NCBI GenBank assembly: GCA_016840405.1
Contig: JAEOSK010000047.1
Span: 1 to 15,013 of the forward strand
Reading direction: 5' to 3'
Length of the DNA: 15,013 nucleotides
From: Candidatus Hermodarchaeum yapensis
GTDB taxonomy: Archaea; Asgardarchaeota; Hermodarchaeia; Hermodarchaeales; Hermodarchaeaceae
The notes beneath the pieces were generated by a model. That model worked only from the letters and a program-made list of their open reading frames with translations, ran no database searches and was not told the origin of the DNA. Positions 4,948 through 13,849 of the stretch are shown piece by piece. Both the position numbers and the translations under genes were made by a program. Position 1 is the first letter of the stretch. Each line of letters opens with the position of its first letter.

Positions 4948-5169
4948 ATGTCAGAGAAGAAAGAACCAAAACCCATCAGTCGAAGAACACGTGCCTACGT
5001 GAGCCTAACCTTCCTTTTTCTCATTCTTCCGACATTCCTAATCTGGACGATATTCATCAATCCATACTTCCCATCCGACCAAGCTATCAACGTATTAATC
5101 CTATTCACTCTGGTCCTTCTAGGGCTAGCCGGAATTCCTTGGTTACCAGTCTTGTTTCCCAGAGAATAA
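4948..5169 (+). CDS. Small hypothetical membrane protein (2 TM helices)
   Basis: 73 aa with an ATG start, a basic N-terminus and two hydrophobic segments. It fills the gap between same-strand genes. Confidence 0.65.
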   Translation: MSEKKEPKPISRRTRAYVSLTFLFLILPTFLIWTIFINPYFPSDQAINVLILFTLVLLGLAGIPWLPVLFPRE

Positions 5170-5228
5170 GTAATGGCTTTAAACATTCATTGAAGACTAA
5201 TAAGTTCACTAGCCCAAATGGGATAATC

Positions 5229-6440
5229 ATGCGAAGAATTTCATTAGCAGACGCACGACGACTCGTCATCTCCTCTCAGCATCTAGCGGACCCAAGAGTC
5301 GGCACAAACAAAGAAGGAATATTGCAAATCATCCGAGATCTTGGATGTGTTCAAATCGACCCGATTAACATAGTCGCACCAAGCCATCAAATTGTGCTTT
5401 GGAGTCGATTAGGACAATATGACTTAGCAGATTTCAAGCAGCTAATGTGGGAAGAACACAAGCTGTTGGAGGACTGGGGACACTGCACTTCCATAGTTCC
5501 CACCACAGATTATCCCATCTTCAAAACGCTCAAACGCGAATGGAAACCACCACCAAAAGTTCAACAATGGCTCACCAACAATCAAACACTCCGCCGCTAC
5601 ATCCTATCAGAAATACGAAGACACGGTCCACTCCCCACAGCACATTTCAAAGACAAGGCAGATGTCGACTGGACCTCAACAGGATGGACAGCAGGGCGGA
5701 ACATCAATCAAATGCTCACATACCTCTGGGTCACCGGAAAAATCATGGTTGCACACCGCGAAGGCAACAACAAATATTGGAACCTGACACAACGAATACT
5801 CCCGAAATGGACACCAACAGAACGGTTAACTAGCCAACAAGTACGTAAACGCATCGCAGAAAGAGCCCTCCAAGCCTTGGGTTTAGCCCAACCAAATCAC
5901 ATCCGGTACTACTACATTCGGGGAATACCAGAAAATATCACCCCAATTCTCTCAAAGCTTACATCTCAGGAACAAATCGAACAGATCCAAATCATTAATC
6001 CAAGCACTCAACAACCTGTTCAAGGAACATGGTATATTCATACAACGACTCTCCCATTGCTAGATAAAATCGAGAATGAGAAATGGAGAGGAAGAATTAC
6101 ACTCCTCTCACCATTTGATAATCTCATCTATGAAAGAAATCGAATCGAACAACTCTTCAATTTCAGATATCGTCTTGAAATCTACGTTCCCAAGGAAAAT
6201 CGTCAATATGGACCCTACGCACTCCCCATCCTATTTGGCGACCAGTTCATCGGTCGTATCGATGCCAAGCTGAATCGGGAAACCAATCAACTTGAAATCA
6301 GAACCATCCACTCTGAACCCAACGCCCCGCTCACCAAAGAAATAGGGGAAAAAATTCAATCAGTCTTGAACCAGTTTGGTACATTCTTAAAAGCAGAAAA
6401 CATCCAATACTCCAAAAAGATCCCAAAGGAATGGAAATAA
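5229..6440 (+). CDS. ycaQ: YcaQ-like winged-helix (HTH_42) DNA glycosylase for crosslink/alkylation repair
   Basis: 'ISLADARRL...Q.L', catalytic QxD motif 'VQIDPINIVAPSH..VLWSRLG', and 'LLSPFDNLI..R.R..LFNFRYRLEIYVP...RQYG.Y.LPIL.GD.FIGRID.K'. ATG 5229 is preferred: the 5139 start overlaps the upstream gene, and TTTAAACA at 5178-5185 is TATA-like. Confidence 0.92.
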   Translation: MRRISLADARRLVISSQHLADPRVGTNKEGILQIIRDLGCVQIDPINIVAPSHQIVLWSRLGQYDLADFKQLMWEEHKLLEDWGHCTSIVPTTDYPIFKTLKREWKPPPKVQQWLTNNQTLRRYILSEIRRHGPLPTAHFKDKADVDWTSTGWTAGRNINQMLTYLWVTGKIMVAHREGNNKYWNLTQRILPKWTPTERLTSQQVRKRIAERALQALGLAQPNHIRYYYIRGIPENITPILSKLTSQEQIEQIQIINPSTQQPVQGTWYIHTTTLPLLDKIENEKWRGRITLLSPFDNLIYERNRIEQLFNFRYRLEIYVPKENRQYGPYALPILFGDQFIGRIDAKLNRETNQLEIRTIHSEPNAPLTKEIGEKIQSVLNQFGTFLKAENIQYSKKIPKEWK

Positions 6441-12134: not shown

Positions 12135-13388
12135 ATGCGATACGAGACCATTCAAGCGAAGACATTGTTATCCAAACCCATCTATGGTGACAGCTGGTTT
12201 CACAGCAATCGCTCCATGAACGCTTATCGAGGTTGTGAACATGGATGCGTCTACTGTGATGGTCATTGCCAATACTATCGCATTGACAACTTTTACACCC
12301 ATATCCGGGTCAAAGAAAATGCTCCAAAAATTCTGCGGCGAGAATTGGAACGCATGAAATACCGGTCACAGAGTAAGCTGCAAACGAGTTCATTGGTCCG
12401 ATTTTTAGACAAAGACGATGCGTCACGAGTGATTGATCAAAGCCCTAGGAAGATTATCATTGGGATATCTGGCGGGGTTTCTGATGCCTATCAACCTGCC
12501 GAGGGGCAATACGAGATTTCTCGACAAGTCCTTGAAACGGTTCTCGATTTTCGGATGCCTGTCTTTGTGTTGACAAAGTCAGATCTAGTTCTACGAGATT
12601 TGGACCTGCTAAAGGAAATTCATAAACATGCCTTTGCCAATGTCTGTTTCAGTATCACCTTACACGATGAGGAAACTAAAGCGATTTTTGAACCGAAATC
12701 CTCGACGACATGGGAACGTTTTGAAGCTCTGAAGCAGATTCGGAAAGCGGGACTCTTTGGTGGTATTCAGGCAGTTCCGATCATTCCAGGGATTGGTGAT
12801 TCTGTTGAGAACATGCAGGGGCTAGCCAAGGACGCTAAGAAAGCGCGTGCTGAGTATATTTTGTTCGCTGGGATGACACTGAAGCCAGGACGGCAGAAAG
12901 AATATTTCTTCAACGTCGTTCACCACCAGATGTCCGAAGCCTATGACCTCTTACAGGACATCTATGCCAACAATCACACCTATGGACATCCGATCTTTGA
13001 ACGGTTACCAGTGAACGTGATGGTTCAAGGCTACAAGATTTGCAAACAGGTGGGCATTTCAGATCGATCGATTCGCCACATGATGCCCACTGAACCCGAA
13101 GCAAATGTCCAAGTCCTCAACGCCCTTTTGGACCTAGTCTTTTATCGTTCCATGACCCTTGGCAAACCTCGTCAATCCTGGAAACCTTATCATGAATTAG
13201 CCATTCAAATTGAAAAAGGCGTACTAAATCTTGCTGAGTTATACAAACAAGGATTACTCGAAAAACAACTCGGCATGAGTCCCAAGATGACACACGTCAT
13301 CGAAGAGATACTTCAGACGGGAACCTGTCAAGCTTTAGCGAATGCCCAAAGGGAACTTGCTCAACGAGCCGAGAAAATCAATGTTTAA
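12135..13388 (+). CDS. Radical SAM protein, spore photoproduct lyase-like (COG1533), with a C-terminal helix-hairpin-helix domain
   Basis: 'MNAYRGCEHGCVYCD' (CxxxCxxC), 'VKENAP..LRREL', 'SDAYQPAE', 'LTKSDLVLRDLDLL', 'FEP...ERF', 'PIIPGIGDS'. The C-terminus resembles the PolX 8-kDa domain. Confidence 0.92.
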   Translation: MRYETIQAKTLLSKPIYGDSWFHSNRSMNAYRGCEHGCVYCDGHCQYYRIDNFYTHIRVKENAPKILRRELERMKYRSQSKLQTSSLVRFLDKDDASRVIDQSPRKIIIGISGGVSDAYQPAEGQYEISRQVLETVLDFRMPVFVLTKSDLVLRDLDLLKEIHKHAFANVCFSITLHDEETKAIFEPKSSTTWERFEALKQIRKAGLFGGIQAVPIIPGIGDSVENMQGLAKDAKKARAEYILFAGMTLKPGRQKEYFFNVVHHQMSEAYDLLQDIYANNHTYGHPIFERLPVNVMVQGYKICKQVGISDRSIRHMMPTEPEANVQVLNALLDLVFYRSMTLGKPRQSWKPYHELAIQIEKGVLNLAELYKQGLLEKQLGMSPKMTHVIEEILQTGTCQALANAQRELAQRAEKINV

Positions 13389-13849
13389 TCGAGCCCAAGT
13401 CCCTCGTCCGGCATCCATTCAGGCCAACCATCATACCAATTTGGCACCCGAACGTTTTGAACGCGATCACAGACCGGAATATAGCCTTTCAAGTCAAGCA
13501 CAGGTGACCCATCAAAGGCGTCAATTTTTGCCAGCCCTACCGTCCCTTGCTCTTCATCTACTGCTAGCACTTTGCACACTGTCAAGGCAATCGGATTGGG
13601 GCGATACTCTGCACGACATGCAAACACACCTGCTGTGGTGCCGGGAGCATAGGGAAGTTCGGTTTGCATAATCGTTCGCGATTTCTGGTTATCATGTTTA
13701 TCTGCCCACCAGATTACCATCACATGGCTATACAAATCCAGATGCTTCAAACCGGGTGCAAAGGATTTCATCAGCTTAATAGTGACCTCACCATTACCTT
13801 GACGAACGTACCCAATCGGGTGGATTTTGTAAACTTCTTCGTTCGACAT
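13385..13849 (-). CDS. tsaA: TsaA/TrmO-like SAM-binding protein (tRNA m6t6A37 methyltransferase family, short form)
   Basis: Motifs 'PIGYV', 'GL..L..YSH..VIWW', 'GVFACRAEYRPNPIALT' and 'IDAFDGSPVLDLKGY'. AGGTG SD upstream. Confidence 0.88.
   Translation of the reverse strand: MSNEEVYKIHPIGYVRQGNGEVTIKLMKSFAPGLKHLDLYSHVMVIWWADKHDNQKSRTIMQTELPYAPGTTAGVFACRAEYRPNPIALTVCKVLAVDEEQGTVGLAKIDAFDGSPVLDLKGYIPVCDRVQNVRVPNWYDGWPEWMPDEGLGLD

Follow-up and report, generated by a model that had tools for sequence, protein, structure and literature searches.

The locus considered here raises the question of what kind of enzyme is formed when a radical S-adenosylmethionine (SAM) core carries, at its C-terminus, a domain resembling part of a DNA polymerase. 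The window, i.e. the whole stretch of 15,013 nucleotides analysed (contig JAEOSK010000047.1 of assembly GCA_016840405.1, from the Asgard archaeon Candidatus Hermodarchaeum yapensis), contains a gene encoding such a protein of 417 amino acids (aa), hereafter the 417-aa protein. A preliminary description, made by eye, had presented it as an enzyme similar to spore photoproduct lyase (SPL) fused to a helix-hairpin-helix (HhH) domain of the Pol beta type. Follow-up by profile, structural and genomic comparisons establishes that the C-terminal tail is a five-helix domain descended from the N-terminal 8-kDa domain of family X DNA polymerases (PolX), and that the gene represents a divergent Asgard lineage within a large family, which databases already show under the Pfam architecture PF04055+PF14716. 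We favour, with a probability of about 0.55, an enzyme whose radical chemistry is directed at nucleic acid, the target being probably a lesion or a modification in DNA. The tail would then be a positioning module with no part in catalysis, the phosphate-binding features of which have decayed in this clade.

Results and Discussion

Origin of the C-terminal tail

Homology of residues ~324-411 to the PolX N-terminal 8-kDa (HHH_8) domain is near certain, even though it escapes the usual domain scans. The Pfam HHH_8 model (PF14716) gave no match up to an E-value (E) of 10, whether the whole protein or residues 300-417 were submitted, and phmmer with residues 290-417 returned, from 1.8 billion representatives, 26 matches, nearly every one of which was a fragment or belonged to the same clade. 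Since a single tail sequence does not reach PolX, profiles were needed: A2, the C-terminal alignment of the clade (78 sequences, residues 300-417); A5, the N-terminal domains of 20 Asgard PolX from genomes of the same phylum; and A7, a whole-family profile combining canonical and clade forms. Comparison of A2 with A5 by hhalign gave a probability of 98% and an E of 2.3e-13 over 86 aligned columns. When run on Asgard genomes, A2 matches the N-termini of PolX frames of 573-600 aa, with per-genome E of 1e-10 to 1e-6. The same profile compared to the PDB ranked two designed repeat proteins first, the matches below them being nearly all PolX 8-kDa domains of marginal E (0.07 for residues 8-88 of Thermus PolX and 0.1-0.35 for residues 31-92 of Pol beta), while A7 yielded 2.6e-7 for residues 2-87 of Thermus PolX and ~2e-5 for residues 12-90 of Pol beta.

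Structural comparisons lead to the same domain. The AlphaFold2 model of residues 300-417 has a predicted local distance difference test score (pLDDT) of 93.6, and the Foldseek search of this model places Thermus PolX and Pol beta at the top (TMq 0.60, root-mean-square deviation of 2.3 Å over 86 columns, probability 0.99). An exhaustive VIA structural search over 48,161 chains returned Thermus PolX (3au2) with a Z-score of 10.8, followed by Deinococcus PolX (2w9m, 8.9), terminal deoxynucleotidyl transferase (8.2), Pol beta and Pol mu (8.0 each), Pol lambda (7.7) and the Mus81 N-terminal HhH domain (6.2), with unrelated folds at 5.8 or less. The gap between the tail and PolX is also bridged by relatives of intermediate sequence. 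Bathyarchaeota radical SAM proteins of ~377 aa reach 40-53 bits on HHH_8 (cut-off 30) with an intact GVG hairpin, and their tails also match the NCBIfam PolX model; an Asgard protein of 413 aa (L039:508-1746) shows 40% identity to the 417-aa protein along the whole length, and its tail has an HHH_8 score of 42 bits.

The tail thus shares with the 8-kDa domain of Pol beta, Pol lambda and the bacterial and archaeal PolX both the five-helix fold and a homologous sequence, including the helix N-cap Asn, the Tyr39 position and the 'E-[IF]-L-x-T-G' helix. It differs in being appended to the C-terminus of another enzyme, with no polymerase domains after it, and in lacking the K72 nucleophile, conserved hairpin glycines and a conserved 5'-phosphate pocket. 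The open reading frame (ORF), the quoted strings and the positions given in the preliminary description proved exact upon translation, and its PolX-like domain was borne out by hhalign, by the structural searches and by A7. Of the two profile-level checks that it had called for, the Pfam model failed and the profile-profile comparison succeeded; as Pfam HHH_8 is blind to this tail, the by-eye call went beyond what standard annotation offers.

The radical SAM core and its relation to SPL

Radical_SAM (PF04055) is the only Pfam family detected in the whole protein, with 35.9 bits against a cut-off of 29.5. The three cluster cysteines C34, C38 and C41 are invariant in alignment A1 and at least 90% conserved in alignment A3. 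The closest curated models of the core are the NCBIfam PA0069 family (NF033668; E 3.8e-45, 154.4 bits, below the cut-off of 360) and the Rv2578c family (NF038135; E 1.1e-39, 136.4 bits, below the cut-off of 430), which are likewise uncharacterised. Judged by these scores, the 417-aa protein is a relative of both families and a member of neither. Unlike it, PA0069 and Rv2578c proteins have no tail and end ~30 residues past a 'CK..G' helix. Most bacterial relatives of the PA0069 type that lack a tail also carry this helix close to their C-terminus, so that the tail can be taken to begin after it.

The full-length AlphaFold model (pLDDT 92.2, predicted template modelling score (pTM) 0.91) contains a radical SAM partial TIM barrel whose top structural neighbour is SPL (SplB; 4FHC-4FHG), a DNA-directed radical enzyme. 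The Foldseek search ranks SPL 4fhg first (E 7e-6, TMt 0.50, 263 columns), and 4fhc, 4k9r, 4fhe and 4rh0 follow (E from 7e-6 to 2e-5 for 4fhg and 4fhc), so that SPL chains outrank generic radical SAM enzymes. Sequence methods, in contrast, find no SPL: the Pfam SPL family (PF20903) has zero matches up to E 10, the SPL model is not among the NCBIfam matches, no SPL chain was retrieved from the PDB by single-sequence phmmer (which found nothing useful there) or by the A3 profile, and none is present among the best 60 of the 76 PDB matches of A7. The earlier label 'SPL-like' therefore holds for the fold and for COG1533 and fails for the family; the 417-aa protein is not an SPL proper. The structural rank, together with the name 'DNA repair photolyase' borne by relatives in databases, might suggest a true SPL orthologue reversing 5-thyminyl-5,6-dihydrothymine, an idea that we regard as very improbable given the sequence results above, the lack of a PolX-like tail in SPL, whose setting is that of spores and ultraviolet (UV) light, and the host, a non-sporulating sediment archaeon. 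The preliminary description had rightly presumed a non-sporulating organism, as the source names designate an Asgard archaeon.

The source genome also holds, on another contig, a tail-less COG1533-like radical SAM paralog (G000:C42:107352-107954; L123, L124) with a frame of 278 aa, which is 33% identical to the 417-aa protein over residues 113-255.

Catalytic and DNA-contact residues of the tail

The 18-residue string LGMSPKMTHVIEEILQTG, corresponding to residues 379-396 (L379-G396; positions 13269-13322 of the window), aligns to Pol beta in an ungapped register supported by the HMMER ranges and by the alignments. In this register, K72, the nucleophile of 5'-deoxyribose phosphate (dRP) lyase, is replaced by Val388 and K68 corresponds to Lys384. 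The K72 position holds neither Lys nor Arg in any of the 78 clade sequences (I, T, V, E, D, M or A are found instead) and is Lys in 18 of the 20 Asgard PolX, which upholds the reported loss of the lyase lysine. With no Lys at this position throughout the clade, the tail is predicted not to perform dRP-lyase (Schiff-base) chemistry. The retention of K68, also reported earlier, is correct for the 417-aa protein and does not extend to the clade, where 19 of 78 sequences have Lys at this position; in the 20 Asgard PolX the residue is Ser or Ala.

The Gly-x-Gly hairpin of HhH domains is the feature that contacts DNA phosphates. In the 417-aa protein it reads G380-M381-S382. Across the clade, Gly is present at the G64 position in 18 of 78 members and at the G66 position in 5, most others having D, S, N or T, and both glycines occur together in 3. 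By this residue count, the phosphate-binding hairpin has decayed in this Asgard clade. For that reason we can only infer a DNA-binding role for the clade's tail, by analogy with relatives whose hairpin is intact. Of the non-catalytic DNA-binding module proposed at the outset, the absence of the lyase lysine stands and the DNA binding was overstated. The net charge and isoelectric point of the tail were considered as an indicator of DNA binding and dropped, as the PolX 8-kDa domains of Asgard archaea (median -2.5) and the tails (-2) are equally acidic.

Relatives with a canonical tail have a GVG or GIG hairpin and have mostly lost K72 too (I, T, V, Q or L). An Asgard radical SAM + HHH_8 protein of 379 aa (L132; G023:C1:2189100-2190900, minus strand) departs from this pattern: its tail, KGIGEKLAKKIEELL, retains the equivalents of both K68 and K72. 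A lyase-competent tail is thus conceivable in that lineage, which may possess one.

Distribution and evolution of the fusion

The survey shows that the fusion is neither unusual nor rare: it is of old origin, occurs in Asgard archaea, Bathyarchaeota and several bacterial phyla, and forms a large family. Among 81 Asgard genomes searched with the tail profile, radical SAM-sized frames of 357-476 aa were found in many families. Most of these genomes have one tailed copy each, the type of which is set by the lineage, and the tail is retained across the phylum; the source genome has a single tailed gene. The nearest homologs (87-91% identity) carry the labels Hermodarchaeota or Promethearchaeota, the remoter ones Hodarchaeota and Thorarchaeota. 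On the bacterial side, a Chitinivibrionales protein of 382 aa with an intact GVG (L044) has at least 120 relatives at ~50% identity, and the search with this protein returned 1,211 proteins at E of 0.001 or less, most of them combining PF04055 with PF14716 and including members from Dehalococcoidia. Such bacterial proteins are named 'DNA repair photolyase' by the JGI, and an ESM Atlas look-up agrees on the bacterial radical SAM + HHH_8 set. The full-length A3 profile run on GTDB contigs gave, among the matches listed, mostly tail-less bacterial genes of the PA0069 type.

The nearest kin of the 417-aa protein are the radical SAM + HHH_8 proteins of ~375 aa from Bathyarchaeota, Chitinivibrionales, Dehalococcoidia and others, which are also uncharacterised. 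The two groups are collinear, with a core of the COG1533 type, a linker helix bearing a conserved Cys and a PolX-like tail; they share 32-40% identity over the full length, and the lyase lysine is gone in nearly all of the ~375-aa proteins as well. These proteins differ in that they keep the G-h-G hairpin and pass the Pfam HHH_8 cut-off, whereas the present Asgard clade lacks the hairpin glycines, goes unseen by Pfam HHH_8 and has an additional insert of ~40 residues after the cluster loop.

The order of these events was approached with a quick maximum-likelihood tree, for which tail-less proteins of the PA0069 type served as the root; as the tail columns were included and several branches are long, it is to be read qualitatively. 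The tailed proteins group together, apart from the tail-less PA0069-type proteins (SH-aLRT 90), with the intact-hairpin forms in a basal position. The 417-aa protein belongs to a clade of 16 members (support 99%) whose hairpins are degenerate, and in which the lone 'GhG' label (P0094) is probably a match of the regular expression elsewhere in the tail. A second clade with degenerate hairpins is sister to the canonical L039. The basal position of the intact forms and the presence of two degenerate clades indicate that hairpin decay is derived and took place more than once.

Other HHH_8-related proteins were encountered during the survey. The ORF of 393 aa from a metagenome-assembled genome of Polyangiaceae (L042) is 34% identical to the 417-aa protein over residues 2-286 and ends with '...LCEIDGITSDALEELRKLG', which looks, from its sequence, like a different and shorter HhH-like tail. 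The only strong HHH_8 protein of the source genome is a stand-alone protein of 190 aa (L001:1501-2073; G000:C29:21852-22076) with an intact GVG hairpin, a Lys at the K72 position and an unrelated C-terminal half, its gene being followed by a CitG gene. Several genomes of the same genus have full PolX frames of 580-594 aa in its place; the short form is shared by genome G043, and G052 shows a frame of 146 aa.

Gene model and genomic context

The features of the gene are collected in Table 1. Its start codon is supported by conservation of the N-terminus in alignments of 20 and 61 homologs. In the public collection, the entry for this protein (P0005, 344 aa) corresponds exactly to residues 74-417. 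With M74 as its start it lacks the cluster cysteines, the part left out by this gene call being positions 12135-12356 of the window, CxxxCxxC motif included. The insert is missing from the ~375-aa Bathyarchaeota and bacterial forms and from the short Asgard forms in alignment A7, and the AlphaFold model is less confident in this region (pLDDT 66-79). In the linker, Cys303 is near-invariant and D310-R-S-x-R314-H is a motif of the clade (alignments A3 and A6).

Table 1. Positions in the window of the radical SAM gene and of the features of its product
Feature	Residues	Position	Strand	Description	Basis
Complete gene	1-417	12135..13388	+	417 aa + stop; radical SAM core, linker and PolX-like tail	ORF list, translation
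Radical SAM core	29-223	12219..12803	+		PF04055, NCBIfam matches, Foldseek match to SPL
[4Fe-4S] motif	34-41	12234..12257	+	CxxxCxxC, C34-E-H-G-C38-V-Y-C41	Direct sequence reading
Insert	63-105	12321..12449	+	~40 residues, long Asgard clade only	Alignment A7
Linker	295-320	13017..13094	+	Helix with Cys303 (ICK..G), then D310-R-S-x-R314-H	Conservation in A3 and A6
PolX 8-kDa (HHH_8)-like domain	324-411	13104..13367	+		hhalign, AlphaFold2, Foldseek, VIA, PDB profile matches
Remnant helix-hairpin-helix	375-395	13257..13319	+	Hairpin G380-M-S382 instead of G-h-G	Alignments A4 and A7, column counts
Val388	388	13296..13298	+	Position of the Pol beta dRP-lyase nucleophile K72	Ungapped register

The gene is flanked by a divergent DUF354-like gene and by a convergent TrmO-like gene (PF01980; positions 13385-13849, minus strand), the 3' end of which overlaps it by 4 nucleotides. 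An ORF of 109 aa on the plus strand (13342-13671), antisense to the TrmO-like gene, is probably not a gene. Farther away in the window, an AlkZ-like DNA glycosylase gene (PF06224, E 1.2e-50; positions 5139-6440, plus strand) is located between the Flavin_Reduct and FMN_red genes; because these two are adjacent in the syntenic Hodarchaeota locus L006, the AlkZ-like gene looks like a lineage-specific insertion.

The loci of the Bathyarchaeota relatives have a neighbourhood of their own. In those examined (L007:7142-7885, L008:2661-3389 and L009:7156-7920), a conserved gene of ~245-254 aa lies 8-22 nucleotides downstream of the radical SAM + HHH_8 gene and is followed by a convergent ATP-grasp gene. 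Its product weakly matches the S-component of energy-coupling factor (ECF) transporters, and this gene was ruled out as a repair partner, being a weak ECF-S-like membrane protein. A small CxxCxxCC protein is encoded upstream of the radical SAM + HHH_8 gene in two Bathyarchaeota loci.

Proposed function

If the enzyme acts on nucleic acid, as we favour, its reduced [4Fe-4S] cluster would cleave SAM to produce a 5'-deoxyadenosyl radical, which would in turn abstract hydrogen from a substrate carried by nucleic acid. This substrate would most likely be a lesion or a modification in DNA. The PolX-like tail would help to hold or select the nucleic acid without any Schiff-base (dRP-lyase) chemistry. 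Owing to the decay of the Gly-x-Gly hairpin in this clade, the tail may have come to contribute to structure or to the binding of a partner instead, with the ancestral function of the enzyme preserved. A UV photoproduct is an unlikely substrate because of the dark, anoxic lifestyle of the organism. To our knowledge, gripping DNA at gaps and lesions is the sole known role of the PolX 8-kDa domain.

Several observations weigh against this proposal. The hairpin glycines are lost, and the G66 position is occupied in 22 of 78 clade members by an Asp, which would repel phosphate. The 5'-phosphate pocket of Pol beta (K35, R40, K41, K68 and K72) is not conserved in the clade, where the equivalents of K35, R40 and K41 are not basic. 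The gene has no conserved repair-gene neighbourhood in the Asgard loci, the Thorarchaeota and Hodarchaeota loci sharing no common functional partner. An AlkD-like gene is not adjacent either: the two AlkD-like genes of the source genome are on other contigs, and none adjoins the radical SAM gene in five other Asgard genomes. Most of these facts would equally fit a tail that has become, in this clade, a vestigial or repurposed helical module devoted to capping, dimerisation or partner docking, on an enzyme acting on RNA or tRNA, a protein or a small molecule rather than on DNA. In support of such a change, the conserved polar positions N324, D333 and E360 are also conserved in PolX, which designates them as determinants of the fold rather than ligand contacts, and the pTM of the full-length model suggests that the tail is packed on the core in a fixed manner. 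The rule of one tailed copy per genome nevertheless fits a single function shared with the intact-hairpin relatives, and the characterised uses of the fold that we know of, in PolX and in the Mus81 N-terminal HhH domain, all involve DNA. The core's bacterial relatives are moreover SOS-regulated: COG1533 or SplB-like genes belong to SOS regulons (PMC8565304; PMC3765255) and Rv2578c lies at a LexA chromatin immunoprecipitation peak (PMC3381160). On balance, the repurposed tail on an enzyme with a non-DNA substrate appears rather unlikely.

Within a role on DNA, the enzyme might install or remodel a base modification instead of repairing damage. There is a precedent in the radical SAM isomerase gp53 of phage M6, which acts on DNA and builds a base modification; SPL was the only DNA-associated radical SAM enzyme before it (PMC8989533). 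A DNA-directed tail devoid of lyase chemistry would suit this task as well as it would suit repair. The companion genes of such a pathway (kinase, glycosylase-like transferase, PLP enzyme) are, by contrast, not conserved alongside, the bacterial relatives are damage-inducible (PMC8565304), and the gene is a single-copy chromosomal gene across lineages that is not part of a mobile or defence island. A dedicated modification enzyme is consequently improbable in our view, and the action on a nucleic-acid substrate, most likely DNA, with repair or modification both admitted, remains the reading retained here.

As of 2021, two DNA-acting radical SAM enzymes were known, namely SPL and gp53 (PMC8989533). 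We tentatively consider, as a possibility that is clearly less likely than not, that the family, including its Asgard branch, would constitute a third DNA-directed class after these two, performing the direct, light-independent radical reversal of a non-UV DNA lesion. In anoxic sediment microbes, candidates for this lesion would include a saturated base or a crosslink arising from radicals or alkylation, and the tail inherited from a polymerase would recognise DNA of a particular structure. The literature consulted yielded no characterisation of a radical SAM + HHH_8 fusion.

For annotation purposes, the present case illustrates two sources of loss, as the gene call of the public collection drops the Fe-S motif and Pfam overlooks the tail in this Asgard clade. 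The family also provides a natural experiment, in which canonical tails (Bathyarchaeota and bacteria) can be set against hairpin-decayed tails (the Asgard clade) on the same scaffold. By joining an SPL-like radical core to a DNA-gripping domain, it makes a concrete candidate for new direct-repair or DNA-modification chemistry in anaerobes.

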